11,739 nt of DNA, taken from Pseudomonadota bacterium (GTDB taxonomy: Bacteria > Bdellovibrionota > FAC87 > UBA2466). Below the pieces are notes generated by a model, which was not told where the DNA came from, made no database searches, and saw only the letters and a program-made list of their open reading frames with translations. The translations under genes were made by a program, and so were the position numbers. The DNA is taken from positions 1-11,739 of the forward strand of contig JAYUGC010000114.1 of the NCBI GenBank assembly GCA_043767805.1. Reading direction: 5' to 3'. This document shows positions 282-11,606 of the stretch, one piece after another (the stretch's first letter is position 1; every line of letters begins with the position of its first letter).

Positions 282-767
282 TCAGTTCCCTTTATTGAAG
301 TTGAGGCGCAGCGCCCGGCGGCGCTCGGCATCGGAAAACTTGCGCTTCTCCTCCGGCGTGCGCGCCTCGAAAGGAGGAACGGGTTTCGATTTGCGATTCT
401 CGTCGAGCGCGACGAAGGTTAAAAACGCCTGGGTCGCTTCGTGTCTCTCGCCCGTGGTGCTGTTTTCCGCTTCGACTACCGCTTCGATTTCCATCGAAGT
501 GCGCCCGGCCCAAGTGACCTCCGCCCGGATGTGGACGGTATGGCCGAGACGAATCGGCGCTTTGAAGTGCAGATAATCGATGGAGACCGTGACGCAGGCC
601 GCGCGGGCGTAGCGTTGAGCCGCGATGGCGCAGGCGATGTCCACCCACCCCATGACGACGCCGCCGAAAATGGTGCCGAGAGCGTTGGTGTGAGACGGCA
701 GCACCAGCTCGGTCATGATGACGGGTGACCGATCGGACGCGGCGGGCGTTTTGTTTTCAGTTTTCAT
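282..767 (-). CDS. Acyl-CoA thioesterase, hotdog fold (YciA-like)
   Basis: Motifs VLPSHTNALGTIFGGVVMGWVD, VTVSID..HFKAPIRLG, GRTSMEI and FLTFVALDE. ATGA overlap with the mltG stop at 764-767. Confidence 0.92.
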   Translation of the reverse strand: MKTENKTPAASDRSPVIMTELVLPSHTNALGTIFGGVVMGWVDIACAIAAQRYARAACVTVSIDYLHFKAPIRLGHTVHIRAEVTWAGRTSMEIEAVVEAENSTTGERHEATQAFLTFVALDENRKSKPVPPFEARTPEEKRKFSDAERRRALRLNFNKGN

Positions 768-1801
768 TTCTTGCTGGGGACCCGGTTGGTGTTGCGGGAT
801 TTCTGATACCGGGTCACGTAATCGTTGTGCTCTTTGTAGGTCTTGGAGAACAAGTGCGAGCCTTGCCCGTTCGCCACGAAGTAGAGGTACTCCTCGTTGG
901 CGGGATCGAGCGCCGCCAAGATCGCGTCCCAGCCGGGATTACAAATGGGGCCCGGGGGCAGCGCCTTGATCCGGTATGTATTGTACGGAGTCATCTCCAA
1001 GAGATGCGCCTTGGTGAGGTTGCCGTTGAAATCCTTGATCCCGTAGATCGTCGTCGGATCGCTCTGTAACCGCATCTTCTTCTTCAAACGGTTGTGAAAG
1101 ACCGCCGAGATGATTTTGCGCTCGGTGGGCACGCCCGTTTCTTTCTCGATGATGGAAGCGAGCGTAATCAGCTCGAGCGGAGTAAAACCCATTATGGCGG
1201 CCTTCTTCTTGTACTCCTCGGTGAACTTCGACTGAAACCGCCGCACCATGGTCTCCAAAATGCGCTCTTCGCCGTCGATGAGAGAAAACGAGTACGTATC
1301 GGGAAAGAGAAACCCTTCGAGGGAATCGGCGTTTACCTTGAGCTTCGAGGCCATCTCTTTGGAGAGCCCGAGGCTGGCAAACTTTTTCGCATCGCCCACG
1401 CCCGCCTTTTGTACGATGTCGGCGATCTGCCGCACGTTCCAGCCTTCGGGCACGGTAACCGCGTGCACGATGGGCTCACCTTCGTACAAAGTGTAAAGCG
1501 CGTCCATGGGCCGCATCGATTCGCGGAAGCGGAACTCGCCCGCGCGGACCCGGTGCTCGCCGTTCGTCATGCGAAGGAGCAGCCGAAACATGCCGGGGCG
1601 CTTGATGACGCCTTCCTTGGCGAGCCGCTCGGAGATGCGTCCGATGGTCGAGCCGCGGGGGATCAGAATGTCTTTTGCGGGACCCGAGGCCGAGCCTTCC
1701 ATGACGAAGTAACCGGCGGTAGCGAGCGACAACGCTCCCACGATCGCTAGTAGAATCAGGCTCGAACCAAGAAATCCGCTGCGCTTTTCGGAAGGTGGCA
1801 T
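764..1801 (-). CDS. mltG: Endolytic murein transglycosylase MltG (YceG family)
   Basis: N-terminal TM helix; VTVPEG, LEGFLFPDTY, LASIIEKET (catalytic Glu), VFHNRL, LQSDPT, PYNTY, LPPGPICNPG and YLYFVA motifs. Confidence 0.97.
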   Translation of the reverse strand: MPPSEKRSGFLGSSLILLAIVGALSLATAGYFVMEGSASGPAKDILIPRGSTIGRISERLAKEGVIKRPGMFRLLLRMTNGEHRVRAGEFRFRESMRPMDALYTLYEGEPIVHAVTVPEGWNVRQIADIVQKAGVGDAKKFASLGLSKEMASKLKVNADSLEGFLFPDTYSFSLIDGEERILETMVRRFQSKFTEEYKKKAAIMGFTPLELITLASIIEKETGVPTERKIISAVFHNRLKKKMRLQSDPTTIYGIKDFNGNLTKAHLLEMTPYNTYRIKALPPGPICNPGWDAILAALDPANEEYLYFVANGQGSHLFSKTYKEHNDYVTRYQKSRNTNRVPSKK

Positions 1802-2002: not shown

Positions 2003-3520
2003 TTACTTCAGCCGAGGTAAAGCCGAAGGAACCGCGACTGGGCTCGATCCGGGAGCGGGCTTGGCGAGTCCCACGGGATAGGTGCATTGGTGGTACGCGA
2101 GACTTCCCATGGGCCGGCCGTTGCCGCTGCGGCGAAGACCGCCGAGAGGCAGGTTTTCGCAAGGGTGCGTGGTCGGCAGATTCCAGTGCAGCTGGCCGAC
2201 CCGCACTTCCTCCAGGCAGCGGCCGATTACGGTCTTGGACTGGGTATAGACGGACGCGACGAGCCCGTACTCGCTTTGGTTAATCCATTGCACGGCTTCT
2301 TCCAGATCGCGCACCTTATAAAAGGCGGCGTTGGGCCCGAAGATCTCGCTCTGCTCGTACACGCTCTTCTGCTTCGGCTCCTCGACCACGTGAATGGAAG
2401 GGGAGACGTAGTAACCGCGCTCTTTGCGCTCGAGCGGCTTGCCGCGCATGATCTCTTCCGCGCCTTCGCGCACCGCGATGCCTTGAATGCTCAAGTAGTT
2501 CTCTACGGATTTTTCCGAGAGCAAGGGCCCGAGGAAAGGAGTCTCTTCCCCTTCGACGAGTCCGTTACCGATTTTGCATTTTTTGGCGAGCTGGTGAAAG
2601 TCGTTCAAGAACTTATCGAAAATCTTTTCGTGGACGAGAATCCGGTGGGAGTTGAGGCTCCGCTGTCCCGAAGTGAGAAACGCCGAGAGAAACGAGTGGC
2701 TGAGCGCCGTTTCGTAGCTGGCATCGTCCCAGACGAGTAAGCTGTTTTTCCCGCCCGTATCGGTGACCAGAATTTTCGCGAAATCGCCCAGAATCTGTTT
2801 TTGGATCTTCTGCGCCTTCTCGAAAGAGCCGGTGAAGAAGATGACGTCGACGCCGGAGTGAGCGGCGAGGCGCCGTCCCATCTCGAAGCCGCCGTGGATA
2901 ACGTTGAAGACGCCGGCCGGAATCCCGGCCTCATGGCTCAGGTGCGCGAAGTACTGGCCCACGGTCGGCGCGTACTTAGTTGATTTCAAGACCACCGTGT
3001 TGCCGTACACCAGGGCCGGAAGGAAAGAACGGTGCGCGCCCAGCGCCGGGATGTCGGTCGCTCCGAATACGGCGGTGACTCCATGCGGGAAAAGGCGGAC
3101 GGCGCCGGTCATGCCCGGACCAGCTTCACTTAGCGCGGTTTCCAGGGGACGAGCCGCGGCTTCTTTCAAAACGAGATCGAAATAGGAGAGAGTTTCCGCC
3201 ACTTCCTGGCGCGATTCCCAAAGGGGCTTTCCGATTTCCAGGGTGATGAGCTGGGCCAGCGTCTCCTGATCCTTCGAGAGGGCTTCCCGGTAGCGGGAAA
3301 GTGCGGAAAGGCGATCGGAAAGCGGGATTCTGCGCCAGGTGGTGAAGCCGCGCTTGGCCGCGGTCACCGCTTCGTTCACGTGCTCGAAGCGGTAAGGGAA
3401 GGTGACGGCGGGGCTTTCGAGGTTGCCCGGGTTCTGGTTCGCTATCTCACCGTTCGCGTCGGTGACCTTCACGAACTTGCCCTGCAGATAGTCGCCTCGG
3501 TAACTATAGCTAAGCTTCAT
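2003..3520 (-). CDS. astD: AstD-like aldehyde dehydrogenase-fold protein (succinylglutamate semialdehyde dehydrogenase subfamily), catalytic residues substituted
   Basis: ALDH motifs EIGKPLWES, PHGVTAVFG, PALVYGNTVVLK, PAGVFNVIHG, FTGS, GGKNS, GQR, EIFGP, YGLVAS and LPLGG..RSGNGR; next to astA; SD GAGGTG. Canonical PFNFP, LEMGGK and GQRC read ATDIP, TDTGGK and GQRS. The symbol denotes ancestry, not proven activity. Confidence 0.85.
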   Translation of the reverse strand: MKLSYSYRGDYLQGKFVKVTDANGEIANQNPGNLESPAVTFPYRFEHVNEAVTAAKRGFTTWRRIPLSDRLSALSRYREALSKDQETLAQLITLEIGKPLWESRQEVAETLSYFDLVLKEAAARPLETALSEAGPGMTGAVRLFPHGVTAVFGATDIPALGAHRSFLPALVYGNTVVLKSTKYAPTVGQYFAHLSHEAGIPAGVFNVIHGGFEMGRRLAAHSGVDVIFFTGSFEKAQKIQKQILGDFAKILVTDTGGKNSLLVWDDASYETALSHSFLSAFLTSGQRSLNSHRILVHEKIFDKFLNDFHQLAKKCKIGNGLVEGEETPFLGPLLSEKSVENYLSIQGIAVREGAEEIMRGKPLERKERGYYVSPSIHVVEEPKQKSVYEQSEIFGPNAAFYKVRDLEEAVQWINQSEYGLVASVYTQSKTVIGRCLEEVRVGQLHWNLPTTHPCENLPLGGLRRSGNGRPMGSLAYHQCTYPVGLAKPAPGSSPVAVPSALPRLK

Positions 3521-3578
3521 TCGGCACCTCGAGGTTGAACGATGACTGAAACGATCTTATCGAGGGACCCTGGAGGGG

Positions 3579-4643
3579 TCAATCCGCCTCGGGACGAGCG
3601 GACTCGAGGCTGGTGGAGACGTAATGGATCTTTTCTCCCGGCCCGGTTCCGAGCACTTCCATGGCGGACTTGGTCAGCTGAATCCGGCCCCGGTTCGCAT
3701 GGCAGTGGGTCTGGATGCAACGGAACTCATCCTTGTTCATCAAGGCGACCAAGCCGAAATCCCCGTTCCTCTTCTTGAGAAGTTCCCGGCGGACGCTGAA
3801 CTTTTTAGCGTCCTTGATGAGGCTGACCTTGTCGGTCTCCGCCCAATAATGCGGGCCTCCGTCAAACGGGTCGATGTGCTGGCGCCATTTAAAGCCGATG
3901 CGTTCCAGCATGTGCTTCACCGGGTGCGCGCCCGGGCCCACTTGGCCGATGGCATCGCGCACTTCACCGGAGAGCAGGCACGTATAGATGTCACCCTTCG
4001 GAAAAAGGGAAGTGACGAACTCCTTGTTCTTACGAGAGAGCACGTCGGCTTCCGGATAAGAGAGGTTCGTGAACTTCCGGCCCAAGGCTTCCCAAAGAAT
4101 GCTCTCGCCGGTATCGGTGAGCGGCGGCATGAGCTCGGAAAGAATGTAATTCTTGAACCAGCGCCGCTTCATCTTCATGAAGACGAAGCGCGAGAAGGAA
4201 AGCTGGCGCCCGAGCTTGCCGGGGTGGCTTCTGAAGTTCGGATGAATCACGAGCCCGCCGATTTCCGTTGGGCCGTCGAAATCGAACTTTAGCCGAAGCA
4301 CGCGGTGGATGATGCCGGAGTGAATGGTCTCGCTGTACTTCTTCTTCTCGATGAGCTCGAAGTACATGTGCGGTTCGATGGGGCTTCCGTGGCGCGCGAT
4401 GACCATGGAGGTCCCCACCACGGAATTATCTTCCAGATTTTCCATCACGAGAATGTACTCGCGGGCGAACTTGTCCTCGATGGCGCCCGAGAAGGATTCC
4501 CGGGACTTCTTGATCTTGGCTTTCAAGACCTTCCGGTCGGCCGGAAGATTGATGAAGTAGACCATCTTGCTAAGCGCAAAGAGCCCGTCGAGATCTTCTT
4601 CCCGCACGCTACGGATCAAAAATTGCGAGTCCATCGAGCTCAC
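3579..4643 (-). CDS. astA: Arginine N-succinyltransferase (AstA family)
   Basis: Motifs FINLPAD, TEIGGLVIHPNFR, GRQLSFSRF, LWEALGRKF, LFPKGDIY, IGQV, LERIGF and IDPFDGGPH. GTG start overlaps the upstream stop (GTGA); an alternative ATG lies 3 codons later. Confidence 0.93.
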   Translation of the reverse strand: MSSMDSQFLIRSVREEDLDGLFALSKMVYFINLPADRKVLKAKIKKSRESFSGAIEDKFAREYILVMENLEDNSVVGTSMVIARHGSPIEPHMYFELIEKKKYSETIHSGIIHRVLRLKFDFDGPTEIGGLVIHPNFRSHPGKLGRQLSFSRFVFMKMKRRWFKNYILSELMPPLTDTGESILWEALGRKFTNLSYPEADVLSRKNKEFVTSLFPKGDIYTCLLSGEVRDAIGQVGPGAHPVKHMLERIGFKWRQHIDPFDGGPHYWAETDKVSLIKDAKKFSVRRELLKKRNGDFGLVALMNKDEFRCIQTHCHANRGRIQLTKSAMEVLGTGPGEKIHYVSTSLESARPEAD

Positions 4644-5932
4644 AAGTCCCCCGCCGCGGTGTGAATCATGTTGTAGTAGAACTTGGTGGCGATTTGCATC
4701 TGGCGGAGCGAGTTGTGCTCGTTCGGCCGATGCACGTTTCCCGTCGAGATGCCGGGACCGAAGACGATGGCATCGGCGCCCGCGAGATTGTAGAGCGAGG
4801 CCTCGGTCGAAGTGGCTTTGGTTTTTTTGACTGGCGGGGCACCCGCGGCTTTCAGCGCTTTTTCCGCGGCTTGAATGAACTTACCGTTACGGTTGCCCTT
4901 CAGCGGCGGATCCTGGACGACGGAAACGTTTTTGCCTTTTTCCGACTCGATGGCACGGCTCAGGCGCTGGACGAGCTTGTTCATGTCGATGTCGGGAAGC
5001 GTCCGCACGTCCATGGTGAACTGGATCTCGCCGTCGCGTGTGGTCGCGAGGTTCAAGCTTTGAGTCGTCACGGGCGGATTAAAACGAGTGTCCCGCCGTT
5101 TTCTGAGCTCGCGGCCGATGTCGTCGATCTTCTCCAGCAGGCGGAAGAGGCGGGCGGTCTCTTCGGAAGGGCCGGGCGAAAGGCGGGCCTCGCAGCGATC
5201 GGGCACCTTATTGGAGCCGTTGCCGCCGTCGAGACTCACTATGGCGTACCCGCGCTTACGAATGTCGGTGAGCGCTTTCAAGAGGGCGTTGTCACCGAGA
5301 TCGGGCGTCGCGCTGTGGGCGCTCTTTCCGCGCCATTTCTTATCGAGAAGCTCGGTGGATTTATGGTTACCGAGCGCCATCGTGAACGAAAGAATGATGT
5401 GGCCCTTATGAGCGTAGATGAGCTCGAGGTTCGAGGGCTCGCCGACCAAGGCAAAGCGCGGGATGACTTTCTTTCCGCTGAGAAGCGCTTGCGCTCCATT
5501 TAAGGCGCGTTCTTCGCCGAAGGTTCCCACGATGGCGAAGGGGCGGTTCCAGGGCTTCGCGTGGCGGGCCGCCCAAATCTTGCAAAGGATGTCGAGCTTC
5601 ACGTCCGCGGTGCCAAGCCCGTACACGCGGTCTCTTACGCGCGTGAAATGAAAAGGGTCCCCGCCGGTCTTCGTCCAATCTTCTTTCGCCCCGTAGTTCA
5701 CCGTATCGAGGTGGGTGTTGAGCACGAGGAGATCGGGGGCGTCGGGCGCGTGGTTGAAGGCGATGAGGTTTTTGAACTCGATCCCGTTCTCGACGACCTT
5801 CTGTTCGATGATTTGAAGGCCGGTCTCTTTGAGTAGCGGATGGAGAAAGCGCACGAGCTCTTCGTTGCTGAGTGTGGTGATCGAGTTGATCCGAATCACC
5901 TTTTCCATCCATTCGATTGGGGGGAGCTTCAT
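4640..5932 (-). CDS. M20 metallo-hydrolase, ArgE/DapE-like deacylase or desuccinylase
   Basis: Metal and catalytic motifs NTHLDTV, YGLGTADVK, GEE, GEPS, AHKG, GKSAHSA, N.VPD.C, FGPG and H.PNE are intact. No signal peptide. Confidence 0.9.
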   Translation of the reverse strand: MKLPPIEWMEKVIRINSITTLSNEELVRFLHPLLKETGLQIIEQKVVENGIEFKNLIAFNHAPDAPDLLVLNTHLDTVNYGAKEDWTKTGGDPFHFTRVRDRVYGLGTADVKLDILCKIWAARHAKPWNRPFAIVGTFGEERALNGAQALLSGKKVIPRFALVGEPSNLELIYAHKGHIILSFTMALGNHKSTELLDKKWRGKSAHSATPDLGDNALLKALTDIRKRGYAIVSLDGGNGSNKVPDRCEARLSPGPSEETARLFRLLEKIDDIGRELRKRRDTRFNPPVTTQSLNLATTRDGEIQFTMDVRTLPDIDMNKLVQRLSRAIESEKGKNVSVVQDPPLKGNRNGKFIQAAEKALKAAGAPPVKKTKATSTEASLYNLAGADAIVFGPGISTGNVHRPNEHNSLRQMQIATKFYYNMIHTAAGDL

Positions 5933-5991: not shown

Positions 5992-6184
5992 AGTCGTAAC
6001 CCATCGCAGCAAGGCCATGTAATTAAATAGGATTCCACCACTCGCCTTGCGCAGTACCTCCCGAATGTGATAGAAGGCGCCCACTTCGTCCCTTGAATTA
6101 TCTTGGTTTTCCGGGCCCTTCGGGCCGGGCGGGCGGGATAATCCAGGGGTCGGGAATCGCCAAGTTTTGGAGGGGTCTCGACTC

Positions 6185-6907
6185 ATGTCAGTGCTTGAAA
6201 ACGACGGTTCGGAACACCCGAACGTCGAAGCTTTGCTAGGCCACAGCTTCGTTCATCCGGAATTGCTCCGGGAAGCGCTTACGCATTCTTCCTATTCCAA
6301 CGAAAAAGCCAATCAGGAGACCGAGGTCCTCAAGGACAACGAGCGTCTGGAGTTTTTGGGCGATGCGGTCATTGGCCTCGTGGTCGGTCAGCTTCTCATG
6401 CAACGCTTTCCCGGCGCGAACGAAGGGTGGCTCTCCAAATGGCGGAGCTCGCTGGTCAGCCGCAAAACTTTGGCGGACCTAGCCATCGAGCTGAAGCTTG
6501 GCGAACACTTGCTTCTCGGCCGTGGCGAGCGCCGCTCGGGCGGCGCCGAAAAAACTTCGATCCTGGCAAGCGGTTTCGAGGCTTTGGTCGGCGCTATGTA
6601 CTTGGATGGGGGCATCGAGCCCGCGGGCAAATTTTTGGAACGTCTTTATGAGCGCCTCATCGGCGGCCTGACCGTGGGCGGGCGCGATATGATGGATAAG
6701 AAGACTCATCTTCAGGAAAAGACGCAGTCCCTCTACCGGGTGATCCCGGAATATCGTGTCATCGATTCCTGGGGCCGCGAGCACGAAAAGATTTTTCGGA
6801 TCGAGATTTGGATTCAGGGCAAGGCGATCGCCGTCGCCGAAGGCCGGAGTAAAAAGGAAGCGGAACAGGCGGCCGCGAGCATCGCCCTAGAAATTTTGGA
6901 GTTTTAA
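6185..6907 (+). CDS. rnc: Ribonuclease III
   Basis: ALTHSS, signature NERLEFLGDA, FEALVGAMYLDGG and a C-terminal dsRBD (KTHLQE, G.SKKEAEQ.AA). Start placed at ATG 6185 behind SD GGAGGGG (6169-6175), not TTG 6167. Confidence 0.98.
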   Translation: MSVLENDGSEHPNVEALLGHSFVHPELLREALTHSSYSNEKANQETEVLKDNERLEFLGDAVIGLVVGQLLMQRFPGANEGWLSKWRSSLVSRKTLADLAIELKLGEHLLLGRGERRSGGAEKTSILASGFEALVGAMYLDGGIEPAGKFLERLYERLIGGLTVGGRDMMDKKTHLQEKTQSLYRVIPEYRVIDSWGREHEKIFRIEIWIQGKAIAVAEGRSKKEAEQAAASIALEILEF

Positions 6908-6908
6908 G

Positions 6909-7841
6909 ATGGAAGAAAACACGAATCAGCCCCAAGAGTTCAAAAGCGGTTTCATCGCCCTGGTCGGGCCGACGAACTCCGGTAAGTCGACTTTGCTCAA
7001 CGCCCTGGTTGGGCAGAAGGTGAGCATCGTCTCCCCGAAAGTGCAGACGACCTATCACAAGATGAACGGCATCGTGAACGGTAAGCACGAGCAGCTGGTT
7101 TTCGTCGATACCCCCGGGTTTCAGCGCTTCGAGGAGTCGATGGCGCGGTTACTCAATAAGGTGGCCGATCGCGGCGCTGAGGAGTGCGACGTGCACGCCT
7201 GGGTGTTCGACTGCTCGGAAGGCCGGGCCTTGTCGCAGATCGAAAAGCTCCAGGACCGCATCAGCACCCTGGGTAAGCCTGAGAATCGCATTTTGCTTTT
7301 GAACAAGGTCGATAAGCTGAAGTTCAAGCCCGATCTCCTTCCGCTTCTCCAGCAGCTGACGGAGATGAAACTCTTTAGCGAAATCATCCCTATCTCGGCG
7401 CACAAGAAGAGCGGCCTCGATCGCGTTTTCGCAGCCGTGCGCGCCCGCATCGGCACCGGACCGCAACTTTTCCCCCAAGACCAGTACACGGATCGCTCCG
7501 AGCAGTTTCTCGTGGCCGAACTCATTCGCGAGCGGATTTACCGCGAGACCGGACAAGAGCTTCCGTACTCCGTCTGGATCGAGATCGAAAGCTGGGAGAC
7601 GCAAGAGACGAAGACCAGCAAAGTGCCCACCATCCGGGCCATCATCCACATCGATTCGGATTCCCGTAAGCGCATCCTCATCGGTAGCGGCGGTGGTCTC
7701 ATCAAGGAAATCGGCATCGGCGCCCGCAAGGGAATCGAAGAGCTCCTTGGTTACCAAGTTTGCTTGAAGCTTTTCGTCGACGTGCAGGACTCTTGGAAGA
7801 GCAGCAAAGGCACGATGACGAATTATCTGGAGCTCACATGA
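6909..7841 (+). CDS. era: GTPase Era
   Basis: KSGFIALVG..NSGKST, VSIVSPKVQTT, DTPG, NKVD, PISA, ELIRE, QELPYS and a KH domain. Starts 1 nt after rnc. Confidence 0.97.
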   Translation: MEENTNQPQEFKSGFIALVGPTNSGKSTLLNALVGQKVSIVSPKVQTTYHKMNGIVNGKHEQLVFVDTPGFQRFEESMARLLNKVADRGAEECDVHAWVFDCSEGRALSQIEKLQDRISTLGKPENRILLLNKVDKLKFKPDLLPLLQQLTEMKLFSEIIPISAHKKSGLDRVFAAVRARIGTGPQLFPQDQYTDRSEQFLVAELIRERIYRETGQELPYSVWIEIESWETQETKTSKVPTIRAIIHIDSDSRKRILIGSGGGLIKEIGIGARKGIEELLGYQVCLKLFVDVQDSWKSSKGTMTNYLELT

Positions 7842-9130
7842 AGGGCGAGATTTACACGGTAGGCATCATCGGGCGGCCCAACGTCGGCAAATCCTGCCTA
7901 TTCAACGCGCTCTTAAAGAGCAATCGTTCCATCGTGCTCGACATGCCGGGAACGACCATGGACGAGCTCGTCGAGAAATGCCGCTGGGAAGAGCGGGATC
8001 TCTACCTCATCGATACCCAAGGGGTGTTCGAGGAAGGCGATTTTCCGGTCGTCGATCGCAATATGAAGCGCTCGGACGCGGTCCTCTTCGTCGTCGACGC
8101 TCTCGCGGGCATTACGCCTTTCGATCGCTGGCTTGCCACCGAGCTGAAAGCCGCGCGTATTCCCACGCTCTTGGTCATCAATAAGGCCGAGAACAATAAA
8201 GAGCAGCACGCCGCCGAGTTCGCGGAGCTTGGCTTCGAGGAATTTACCGAAGTCTCGGCCGCTCACCGCCAGAACTTGAGCTCCATCACGGAATGGTGCG
8301 TGAAGAGCCTGCCCCAGTCGAAGATTCCCGAAGACAAAGTCGAGCCCGTGAAGGTCGCCATCGTCGGACGCCCGAACTCCGGCAAATCGACTTTGATGAA
8401 CCGTTTTTGCAAAGCTTCCGTCTCTCGGGTGAGCCCCATCGCTCATACCACTAGAGATCCGGTGCGGGCCGTAGTCGAAACCCGCCAAGGCCTCATTCAA
8501 TTCATCGATACGGCGGGCGTGCGTCGCCCGAACGCGAAGAAAGAGCCCGTGGAGTTTTTCTCCATCAAGGCCACCGAGCGGACCATCGAGGATTGCGACG
8601 TGGTTCTCTTATGCGTCGCGAGTCATGAGGACGTGACGGATCAGGACATGCGGTTACTGGGCCTCGTCGAAAAAGCCGGTAAACCCACCGTCGTGCTGCT
8701 CAACTTCTGGGACATGCTGGACCGCGAGTCGCAGGCGAAGTACCTGCGCAATTCCGAGTTTTTCCGTATCTTGAAAAAGTTCCCCCTCGTGAAGGTCAGC
8801 GGCAAGACGGGCTTCAACCTTTCCAAGATTCTCCCGCTCGCGACGCGCCTCTATAGCGCGAGTAATCGCCGGGTGCCGACCGCGAAGCTGAACAAAGCGG
8901 TGGAGACCCTGGTGCGCAAGAATCCGCCGCCGACCGTCGGAAAAGGCAATTTCAACATTCTCTACGCGAGCCAGGTCGCGGTCTCGCCGCCTACTTTCGT
9001 GTTCTTTATGAACCGCAAGGAAGCGTTGCCGACTAGTTACCGCCGGTATGTGGAGAATTCCTTGAAACAAGCGTTCGGCCTGGAAGGCCAGCCCATGCGT
9101 CTCTTATTCCGTGCCCGCGATCGCGTTTAG
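7838..9130 (+). CDS. der: Ribosome biogenesis GTPase Der (EngA)
   Basis: Two G domains (GRPNVGKS/DTQG/NKAE and GRPNSGKS/TTRD/DTAG/NFWD) plus a KH-like tail (YASQ, PPTFVFF, Y.RY.EN). The likely start is ATG 7838, overlapping the era stop (ATGA), not 7760. Confidence 0.97.
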   Translation: MKGEIYTVGIIGRPNVGKSCLFNALLKSNRSIVLDMPGTTMDELVEKCRWEERDLYLIDTQGVFEEGDFPVVDRNMKRSDAVLFVVDALAGITPFDRWLATELKAARIPTLLVINKAENNKEQHAAEFAELGFEEFTEVSAAHRQNLSSITEWCVKSLPQSKIPEDKVEPVKVAIVGRPNSGKSTLMNRFCKASVSRVSPIAHTTRDPVRAVVETRQGLIQFIDTAGVRRPNAKKEPVEFFSIKATERTIEDCDVVLLCVASHEDVTDQDMRLLGLVEKAGKPTVVLLNFWDMLDRESQAKYLRNSEFFRILKKFPLVKVSGKTGFNLSKILPLATRLYSASNRRVPTAKLNKAVETLVRKNPPPTVGKGNFNILYASQVAVSPPTFVFFMNRKEALPTSYRRYVENSLKQAFGLEGQPMRLLFRARDRV

Positions 9131-9776
9131 TTCGAGAAGGCCCTACGGCGTCATCTTGGAAGGCTTCGAGCCGTCTGAGCCAAGGCGTAAAATACAGACG
9201 GGGAATGACGAGGACGGCAATCGAGTAGTGCACTAATGCGTCCGATATTCGGTTCTTCCAGTCAGGTCCCGGCAGGCCTCTCGCCGCTAACCAGCACTCG
9301 TAGGGCAGAGAGTGAAAAGGCTCGTCCCGGCGGATGGTCTGTAAGAGGTTTCTCAGCCGGGCATCTCGCGCGATGAAGCCCCATTTCAGCAAGGCATCGA
9401 GTTGGGCAATCCCTCGTCGTTCGGTCGTAATCACCGCCCGGCAAAGCCGCGCGAAACTCTGCGGCGAGTCCACGAGCCCCGCTGAGCTTTCTGCAGTTCC
9501 CTTTTCTAAAAACCAGGAAGCCACGCGATCGAAGTAGCCGACCGAAGGACCGACCGCGAACGGGCGGACGTTCGAGGCGAGAAACCAGCCTTTGAACATG
9601 CGGTAGTGGCGCCGCTCATCGGCGGCGTGTTTCTTGACGCCCTTCAGAAACTCGTCCTCCTTGCCGACTCTCAGTTCGAGCTCCGGAATGAGATCGCTTT
9701 CGAGCTGAAGGTAGCCGCGCCACTCGTTGTAGAGGTAAACGCTTAGGATTAAGTCACGTAGCCGACGAGAAAACAT
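9033..9776 (-). CDS. Ferritin-like diiron-carboxylate protein of unknown function
   Basis: Ligand pattern YNE...DERRH...TE...DEPFH is typical of four-helix diiron proteins. Hydrophobic segment near the C-terminus; starts 3 nt after the upstream stop. The last ~35 aa look like low-information extension. Confidence 0.8.
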   Translation of the reverse strand: MFSRRLRDLILSVYLYNEWRGYLQLESDLIPELELRVGKEDEFLKGVKKHAADERRHYRMFKGWFLASNVRPFAVGPSVGYFDRVASWFLEKGTAESSAGLVDSPQSFARLCRAVITTERRGIAQLDALLKWGFIARDARLRNLLQTIRRDEPFHSLPYECWLAARGLPGPDWKNRISDALVHYSIAVLVIPRLYFTPWLRRLEAFQDDAVGPSRTKRDRGHGIRDAWAGLPGRTLVSRNSPHTGGN

Positions 9777-11261: not shown

Positions 11262-11606
11262 TCAGGTCTTTTGGAAAGTGTAAGTGTGGGAATGGCCCGG
11301 CGTGCTGCCCGAAGTGACGGCCACCGCGGCTCCGGCGGCGACGCCTGCGACTTGAACGGAGGTCAGGGCCACGGTGTGAGTATGCCCACTACTCAAGCTG
11401 TCCTCACGGCTGATGTTGACAGGAGTGGCCAGTTCCTCGGCAGTGATGGTGAACTGATGGGTGTGCCCAACGCTGGACGAAGTTTCCGTGAGATCGCCTG
11501 CGCTGCCCGTGCCGCTGTTCTGGGAGCTCTGACAGCTGACTAAAACTTGAGTGCCGGACAGGCCAAGAAAAGAGATGAGGCCAAGTAGCATTTCTCGACG
11601 ATTCAT
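11262..11606 (-). CDS. Predicted Tat-exported lipoprotein with three His-x-His repeats
   Basis: MNRREML twin-arginine motif, hydrophobic region, lipobox LVSC, Ser/Gly linker, then GHTH, GHTH and GHSH, each followed by a beta-strand pattern. SD GGAG upstream. Confidence 0.8.
   Translation of the reverse strand: MNRREMLLGLISFLGLSGTQVLVSCQSSQNSGTGSAGDLTETSSSVGHTHQFTITAEELATPVNISREDSLSSGHTHTVALTSVQVAGVAAGAAVAVTSGSTPGHSHTYTFQKT

Follow-up and report, generated by a model that had tools for sequence, protein, structure and literature searches.

The question raised by this locus is whether a gene standing in the place of astD still encodes an enzyme. The window analysed here, the whole 11,739-nucleotide stretch of contig JAYUGC010000114.1 (assembly GCA_043767805.1, Bdellovibrionota), carries on its minus strand a gene for a protein of the aldehyde dehydrogenase (ALDH) fold in which the Asn, Glu and Cys of the catalytic triad are all replaced, called pseudo-AstD in the following. 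An earlier note, made from the letters of the window, had called it a probable pseudo-enzyme and no product of error or early pseudogenisation, and this is supported by the clade-wide loss of the triad together with purifying selection. The gene is probably an astD ortholog that turned, at its original locus, into a protein of the ALDH fold without catalysis and was kept for a binding or scaffold role; that the protein is dead for ALDH chemistry and at the same time selected appears very probable. The gene and the positions on which the argument turns are the following.

2003-3520, minus strand: pseudo-AstD, a 505-aa ALDH-fold protein without the Asn/Glu/Cys triad (open reading frame, PF00171 profile, AlphaFold2 model, Foldseek, dN/dS)
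3525-3530, minus strand: Shine-Dalgarno sequence GAGGTG, 4 nt before the ATG of pseudo-AstD at 3520 (direct sequence read)
3053-3055, minus strand: codon GAC, Asp156, at the position of the oxyanion-hole Asn (Asn169 equivalent; phmmer alignment, codon read)
2759-2761, minus strand: codon GAT, Asp254, at the position of the general-base Glu (Glu268 equivalent; phmmer alignment, codon read)
2657-2659, minus strand: codon AGC, Ser288, at the position of the nucleophile Cys (ALDH2 Cys302 equivalent), in the GQR motif (alignment, codon read)
2159-2161, minus strand: codon TGC, Cys454 (codon read)

The frame was open from the ATG to the stop, confirming the intact and ribosome-binding-site-bearing gene of the earlier note. 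The PF00171 profile matched residues 25-480 with 348 bits (cut-off 23; E 8.8e-104), and the AlphaFold2 model (mean pLDDT 95.3) had the three-domain fold, with TM-scores of about 0.9 to many ALDH structures in Foldseek. The best structural matches were the AstD structures 5u0l, 4kna and 3ju8 (TMq 0.89-0.90, about 30% identity), and the same three, all deposited as N-succinylglutamate 5-semialdehyde dehydrogenase, were on top of the phmmer search of PDB sequences (E 1.6e-73 to 5.6e-64). Also the best curated NCBIfam models were two AstD models, with scores of about half of the family cut-offs (NF006992, 306.2 versus 514 bits; TIGR03240, 287.1 versus 579.3 bits), which leaves the protein outside the AstD family by score. 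It thus has the profile and the fold of the ALDH superfamily and lacks its Cys, Glu and Asn; of the marks of AstD it has the position next to astA, and lacks the score, the catalytic residues and the pathway partners. The protein does not belong to ALDH16, as there is a single PF00171 match ending at residue 480 and no extra C-terminal domain.

The triad of Asn, Glu and Cys assumed here agrees with the excerpts of the reviews PMC8160307 and PMC12041015. Its equivalents in the window are Asp156, Asp254 and Ser288, because three motifs pair with the solved AstD chains 5u0l, 4kna and 3ju8 in the phmmer alignment: GATDIPA with GPYNFPG (Asn to Asp), LVTDTGGKN with LALEMGGNN (Glu to Asp) and GQRSLN with GQRCTC (Cys to Ser). 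The codon coordinates and residues given by the earlier note were borne out by the codon read and this alignment, as was its spacing of 34 residues between positions 254 and 288. When the other ALDH genes of the window's genome were aligned by the same method as a control, Asn and Cys were present in 11 of 11; ten read Asn/Glu/Cys (NEC, the residues being given in the order 156, 254 and 288) and one, a CoA-acylating methylmalonate-semialdehyde dehydrogenase (MMSDH), read NLC. The canonical positional orthologs of astD were NEC in 49 of 49 loci.

One explanation would be that the substitutions are an artefact of assembly or sequencing, or that the gene is on its way to loss as a relic of a decayed arginine succinyltransferase (AST) pathway. 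The Ser codon AGC lies one base from the Cys codon TGC, searches of the window's genome (G000, 100% complete) found neither of two further genes of the pathway, astB and astE, and in one relative, G022, the gene is broken by two frameshifts with its neighbours intact. Against this, Asp/Asp/Ser is also encoded in the congeneric genome G001 (86% amino acid identity), where neighbouring codons differ synonymously, and Logan contigs from two further samples (X2 and X3) span all three codons with 0 differences; the support from these contigs is weakly independent, because they stem from one study. Because of the congener and the identical contigs sequencing error is ruled out, in line with what the earlier note had argued, and the triad substitutions are neither an error nor the property of a lone decaying gene.

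The loss is shared by a whole clade. The protein search gave 120 clusters, two at 85-86%, 99 at 45-56% and 18 at 39-42% identity; the clade set of 102 clusters includes the query. The 18 distant clusters were all canonical (GPFNFP, LALEMGGKN and GQRC). Among the 102 clade clusters, Asn was present in 8, Cys in 37, Glu in 41 and the full triad in one; Glu and Cys varied independently of each other, and the combinations included IDR (18 clusters), VQY (15), SEC (9), TDC (7), AEC (6) and VDC (4). The combination of the window, DDS, was found in three clusters, each at least 85% identical to the query, and the GQR and GGKN motifs flanking the triad positions were fixed across the set. The same division was seen in 80 loci from contigs of species-representative genomes, where 49 of 49 loci at 44% identity or less were NEC and 31 of 31 at 45% or more lacked the Asn. 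In these 31 clade loci position 156 was occupied by V, I, T, S, D and others, never by Asn (canonical Asn 49/49), position 254 by E13 D9 Q5 N2 V1 G1 (canonical E 49/49) and position 288 by Y9 R7 C7 S3 V2 F2 (canonical C 49/49); Gly285, Gln286 and Arg287 were each present in 31 of 31, as was the GGKN after position 254. Changes unique to this genome, which the earlier note had allowed for, are not what was found, and the clade-wide loss speaks in favour of that note.

The genome titles of the clade are those of Bdellovibrionota, Bdellovibrionales or Pseudobdellovibrionaceae metagenome-assembled genomes, with some older 'Deltaproteobacteria' labels. Of the 31 nearest genomes, the window's own and 20 relatives have one copy each of the clade form and belong to two families of the genome taxonomy; four genomes of other families hold a match of 37-40% identity, three of these NEC and one (G023) NGS. 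A quick IQ-TREE analysis of 31 clade and 17 canonical rows (every third of the 49, the partial L056 being left out) placed the pseudo-AstD clade as monophyletic (SH-aLRT 100), and a FastTree of the 120 proteins agreed with it, with the clade on a long stem. Within the clade the quick tree included repeated losses of the Cys, for example VEC beside VEY and SEC beside HEF.

The NGS gene of G023, a 1.5-Mb genome from another family of the phylum, is a separate observation. This AstD-like gene (L044:7060-8475) lies beside mltG and reads Asn/Gly/Ser in the contexts VMGTGGKN and GQRSNG; AstA was not found in G023. Glu and Cys seem to have been lost independently here.

Purifying selection on pseudo-AstD is as strong as that on its neighbours. 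In comparison with G001, the ratio of non-synonymous to synonymous substitution (dN/dS) was 0.082 at dS 1.12, and those of the neighbouring genes were 0.097 for the AstA-like succinyltransferase (AstA), 0.093 for the M20 deacylase (M20), 0.119 for MltG, 0.112 for era and 0.207 for der. A second and closer pair, L074/L075 (both SEC), gave 0.084 at dS 0.20; it was the sole further pair with unsaturated dS, the other ten pairs tried being saturated. In seven other lineage pairs the synonymous sites were saturated and dN was just 0.04-0.2. Gene copies were stop-free in 20 of 20 relatives examined, and the frame was intact in 30 full-length clade loci. The check proposed in the earlier note, whether relatives share the loss at a dN/dS below 1, thus came out positive, and the family falls under the operational definition of a pseudoenzyme, orthologs that share the loss of the catalytic motif under purifying selection. 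With a dN/dS no higher than those of era, der and mltG, intact frames and low dN at saturated synonymous sites, decay or artefact is hardly credible and already largely refuted.

The evolution of the gene is at the same time accelerated, and this specifically, relative to AstA, M20 and MltG of the same genomes. When only genomes with the full set of four genes were compared (22 of the clade, 37 canonical), the pairwise identity of the ALDH proteins was 0.51 within the clade versus 0.68 within the canonical genomes, whereas that of AstA was 0.68 versus 0.61, that of M20 0.55 versus 0.47 and that of MltG 0.55 versus 0.49; by these last three genes the clade is the shallower of the two groups. 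Of the 165 ALDH columns at least 95% conserved in the canonical proteins, 70 were still at least 90% conserved in the clade, compared with 64 of 87 canonical-invariant columns kept in AstA. The excess variability was concentrated in five blocks, of which 121-165 includes the Asn loop, 226-255 comprises the Glu loop and the FTGSxxxG cofactor turn and 451-465 is the substrate-tunnel loop, the other two being 316-330 and 481-495; also the Cys loop is among the relaxed stretches. The tightest block, residues 346-375, was more conserved than in the canonical proteins.

The cofactor site includes a change of its own, in the following element.

2975-2986, minus strand: Lys179-Ser-Thr-Lys182, the adenosine-ribose contact of the Rossmann site, with K179 kept and an acidic residue changed to a basic one

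Lys179 and position 182 are presumably the equivalents of ALDH2 Lys192 and the NAD-specifying Glu195. Lys179 was present in 31 of 31 clade and 49 of 49 canonical proteins. Position 182 was E42 D7 in the canonical proteins and R12 K10 S4 Q3 E1 D1 in the clade, and the exchange of an acid for Arg or Lys in 22 of 31 members is a directional change and not drift. The adenosine-side residues were well kept in the clade, with Gly203, Gly210, Gly231 and Gly395-Pro396 in 31 of 31 each and Asn206 and Glu392 in 29 of 31 each. The window protein has Lys179, Gly231-Ser232, Glu392 and Phe394, and Ala236 instead of the second Gly of the GSxxxG turn. The earlier note had described the cofactor motifs as kept, which is true of VLK (Lys179), FTGS and EIFGP and not of the GSxxxG turn with its Ala236 or of the NAD-specifying Glu, replaced by Lys182. 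Pseudo-AstD may still bind a ligand with an adenosine moiety in what is left of the Rossmann site, though this is on the whole rather doubtful. In the substrate pocket the canonical Arg94, Lys113 and Thr117 have become mostly Phe, Leu and Phe/Tyr and Ser455 has become Tyr/Phe, and N163H and Y478Q were fixed in every clade member counted; the pattern would fit the loss of a charged pocket for a dicarboxylate substrate, the pocket having been filled or reshaped.

The same data bear on the explanation that the protein has remained a catalyst, whether a weak aldehyde dehydrogenase or a new enzyme of hydrolase or esterase type that would use the old pocket with Ser288 and Asp254 (or Cys454). In chemical terms the three changes are conservative, GQR near position 288 and GGKN after position 254 are invariant (31/31), and the residues fixed near the pocket, N163H, Y478Q, F425Y and A252V, suggest that the pocket has been reshaped rather than abandoned; esterase activity of ALDHs at the same site is also described in the excerpts of PMC8160307. 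A conserved chemistry would, however, require a conserved nucleophile. Neither candidate is conserved in the clade, Ser being found at position 288 in 3 of 31 members and Cys at position 454 likewise in 3 of 31, which makes the new chemistry that the earlier note had allowed for at these residues unlikely; position 254 varies as well, and the DDS combination is confined to the three clusters at 85% identity or more to the query. As the substrate-tunnel and cofactor loops are also the most relaxed parts of the protein, a retained or new catalytic activity is improbable.

Another possibility, also raised in the earlier note, is that pseudo-AstD pairs as an inactive subunit with an active ALDH paralog in a hetero-oligomer. 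ALDHs are obligate dimers or tetramers, and the window's genome has eleven other ALDH genes, all with the Asn and the Cys. These are generic, MMSDH or Δ1-pyrroline-5-carboxylate dehydrogenase (P5CDH) types, each at most 33% identical to pseudo-AstD, the closest paralog at that figure. A second AstD-type gene is absent from this genome (100% complete by markers), where the best TIGR03240 match is pseudo-AstD itself, at 287 versus 579 bits. Moreover, the oligomerisation strands (121-150 and 481-495) are among the least conserved parts of the protein in the clade. Pairing with a paralog is accordingly very improbable. Displacement of AstD by another ALDH was considered separately and ruled out among the eleven, as none of them is AstD-like or linked to astA.

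The pathway around the gene differs from the textbook one in the whole phylum. Of the 31 Bdellovibrionota genomes searched, astB was absent from 27, including ones with a canonical AstD, and found in four, and a true astE was present in one, in contrast to the nearly universal astA and AstD-type gene. Given this rarity of astB, the M20-AstA-AstD trio of the phylum is not the textbook AST pathway; ornithine or some other amine may be its starting point. At the one locus scanned for a complete AST cluster around astB (G005, L137), none was seen, astB lying beside a NagZ-like gene. The class-III aminotransferases of the window's genome were generic (about 310 bits versus a cut-off of 610), and a P5CDH was found above its family cut-off; with both present, ornithine could be converted to glutamate without succinylation, and the AstD chemistry might in this way have become dispensable. 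In another genome (G009:C85:6904-9417) a generic ALDH (PF00171, 609 bits) lies directly beside astB and might be a non-orthologous substitute at the AstD step.

The surroundings of the gene in the window comprise the following.

3579-4643, minus strand: AstA-like arginine/ornithine N-succinyltransferase, directly upstream in the same operon (PF04958, E 2.9e-95; below the NCBIfam equivalog cut-offs)
4640-5932, minus strand: ArgE/DapE-type M20 deacylase, its stop overlapping the AstA start (PF01546/PF07687)
764-1801, minus strand: MltG (profile matches; synteny in relatives)
282-767, minus strand: YciA-like thioesterase (profile matches; synteny in relatives)
6167-9130, plus strand: the divergent rnc-era-der housekeeping block, which anchors the locus for positional orthology (profile matches)

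The minus-strand order of M20, AstA, ALDH-like gene, MltG and thioesterase recurs in the clade genomes, and M20-AstA-AstD-MltG recurs in the canonical genomes. Because the gene order is the same in both, pseudo-AstD sits in the astD slot and is the ortholog, not a spare copy. The four runs with matches to 2003-5932 were DNA contigs of one study, with no RNA run among them.

Both upstream enzymes look functional from their residues. When the M20 protein was aligned to the ArgE structure 7rsf, its His, Asp, Glu-Glu, Glu and His motifs were present, and in the clade these six metal or catalytic positions were conserved in 24 of 24 members, except for one of them with 23 of 24. AstA had 52 invariant columns across 59 sequences, in an alignment without the row of L072, whose AstA has an in-frame stop. 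That gene (L072:4887-5924, from a clade member with the triad TQY) is a side observation, the stop lying inside the stretch matched by blastx. In both enzymes certain residues have become fixed in a new state precisely in the pseudo-AstD clade, including G108H, E256H, G193N and K84R in AstA and N292S, G294N and V407N, plus two deletions, in M20. On account of these residues, the whole operon appears to have changed character at the origin of the clade, which suggests a change of substrate for all of it.

A further companion was found downstream. Where the sequence reached far enough, a gene for a family-9 glycosyltransferase (GT9, PF01075) directly followed the ALDH-like gene in 18 of 30 clade loci, compared with 0 of 46 canonical ones. 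The 18 lie among L052-L079, and the gene is also seen at L036:8782-9765, L038:8641-9588 and L033:6187-7194. It was present in 11 of the 31 nearest genomes, all of one family, adjoining the ALDH-like gene in ten and standing at a contig start in the eleventh. In G006 the pair of ALDH-like gene and GT9 is tightly clustered with genes for two methyltransferases, a GT2 and an NAD-dependent epimerase.

These neighbours lend themselves to the explanation that the protein is a scaffold or regulatory subunit of AstA, of the M20 deacylase or, in relatives, of the downstream GT9. The operon order is kept in most clade genomes, AstA and M20 shifted together with the ALDH-like gene, GT9 is found in relatives nowhere else, and in G006 the pair has stayed together away from AstA, inside a glycan-type cluster. 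However, gene neighbourhood alone is weak evidence for binding, and each candidate is missing somewhere while the ALDH-like gene is intact: AstA from one genome, M20 from one locus, and GT9 from the window's genome (100% complete), its congener G001 and the second family. As the genus of the window has no GT9 gene, GT9 cannot explain retention there. A fixed role as subunit of one of these neighbours is unlikely. A complex prediction of AstA with the ALDH-like protein, run without control complexes, scored 0.00 in both runs and speaks neither for nor against such a role.

Elsewhere in the window, two reading frames on the minus strand, at 9033-9776 (247 aa) and 11262-11606 (114 aa), had no Pfam or NCBIfam match, the former running convergently into the end of der with an overlap of about 100 nt. 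The listed der frame begins at a TTG and overlaps era by 82 nt (7760-7841); since the family match begins at residue 33, the real der start is probably further downstream.

Conversion in place into a non-catalytic protein with a binding or scaffold role is the explanation that we consider probable, and its steps may be put as follows. The ancestral gene would be astD, encoding N-succinylglutamate-semialdehyde dehydrogenase, as judged by position, and the conversion would have taken place in one lineage of uncultured Bdellovibrionota comprising two families. The fold has stayed intact, the three residues of the thiohemiacetal chemistry are replaced and the same positions are hypervariable across the clade; aldehyde oxidation would no longer be performed. 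Hydride transfer would have been given up and an anionic adenosine nucleotide perhaps still held, for Arg or Lys in place of the acid at position 182 would be expected with a 2'-phosphorylated or otherwise more anionic nucleotide. The protein would then be a ligand-dependent partner of another protein and not an enzyme. A bolder version, which we regard as quite unlikely, is that AstD of Bdellovibrionota already had a second, non-enzymatic job and that solely this job was kept in the clade, with NADP(H), CoA/succinyl-CoA or an ADP-sugar as the anionic adenosine nucleotide that the remnant Rossmann site, with its Arg or Lys, would sense or present to a partner; for most of the family this partner would be GT9. 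If so, the loss of Glu and Cys in G023 would be a parallel outcome of the same function.

Several points weigh against the conversion or parts of it. The inactivity is deduced from the sequence, and the substitutions in the window are conservative (Asn to Asp, Glu to Asp, Cys to Ser). An ALDH with the Cys-to-Ser mutation retains traces of activity, and total inactivity is therefore not proven. Since about a third of the clade clusters keep the Cys (37/102) and 41 of 102 the Glu, some members may retain weak catalysis. The contacts to the nicotinamide and pyrophosphate are loose in the clade (T230 17/31, S232 17/31, G236 12/31, F394 20/31), and because they vary, dinucleotide binding may also be lost. 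In G022 (81% complete; L141:6580-8083) the gene is split over three frames with AstA, M20, MltG and the thioesterase beside it intact, which is either a real late loss or the result of assembly indel errors. The dS of the main pair, the window and G001, is near saturation, and the monophyly comes from a quick IQ-TREE tree, the careful maximum-likelihood search being unfinished. No AstA was found in G002 (93% complete), and M20 there lies directly against the ALDH-like gene; the G005 locus has no M20; and in G006 (L033:7195-8709, L142) the ALDH-like gene has left both AstA and M20. As no single neighbour is always present, an obligate partnership with AstA or M20 is doubtful.

The nearest known relatives are the canonical AstD proteins of Bdellovibrionota (L082-L130; G026, G028 and G029), which share with pseudo-AstD the locus M20-AstA-AstD-MltG, the length, 37-44% identity and lineage-specific motifs such as the 346-375 block. 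They differ in keeping NEC (49/49), GPFNFP, FTGSxxxG and ALEMGGKN, which the faster evolving clade has lost. The proteobacterial AstD proteins (3ju8 and 4kna; 5u0l bears the same molecule name) share the AstD-type C-terminal SGN.RP...C motif with pseudo-AstD, which in contrast to them lacks the triad and reaches about half of the family cut-offs, in a genome where astB and astE were not found.

Outside AstD, the closest likeness is to vertebrate ALDH16A1, an ALDH fold without the catalytic triad for which a binding or regulatory role has been proposed (excerpts of PMC8160307 and PMC12041015). ALDH16 is, however, a separate family with an extra C-terminal Rossmann-like domain (PMC12041015, in excerpt), whereas pseudo-AstD is a single bacterial ALDH module, and in its lineage the sole ortholog became inactive with no duplicate. 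The ALDH-derived crystallins, listed among non-catalytic structural roles in the excerpts of PMC8160307, are likewise comparable and differ in being eukaryotic lens proteins. The ALDH-like C-terminal domain of PutA does not bind NAD+ according to the excerpts of PMC12041015, and differs as a partial domain fused to an active enzyme. In the excerpts of the two reviews, PMC8160307 and PMC12041015, vertebrate ALDH16 is the only inactive ALDH named, and neither AstD nor succinylglutamate is mentioned in the latter, from 2025. Full-text literature searches on Bdellovibrio arginine N-succinyltransferase, the AstD catalytic cysteine and ALDH pseudoenzymes gave nothing relevant.

Pseudoenzymes have mostly been described in eukaryotes and mostly arise from duplicates, and some ALDH crystallins are without activity. 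The pseudo-AstD clade would be an orthologous, operon-resident family of bacterial ALDH pseudoenzymes, working in the manner of ALDH16A1, in which the sole ortholog of a catabolic enzyme turned non-catalytic in its own operon. The non-catalytic form has been maintained until the synonymous sites were saturated many times over, across no fewer than 31 species and 102 protein clusters. The source databases label the clade proteins 'succinylglutamic semialdehyde dehydrogenase' or 'aldehyde dehydrogenase family protein', and because of such labels metabolic reconstructions of these relatives of predatory bacteria would wrongly credit them with the AstD step. With members that have kept the Cys, members in which it has become Tyr, Arg, Ser, Phe or Val, and one with the full triad, the clade may serve as a natural experiment on what a dead ALDH fold is selected for.

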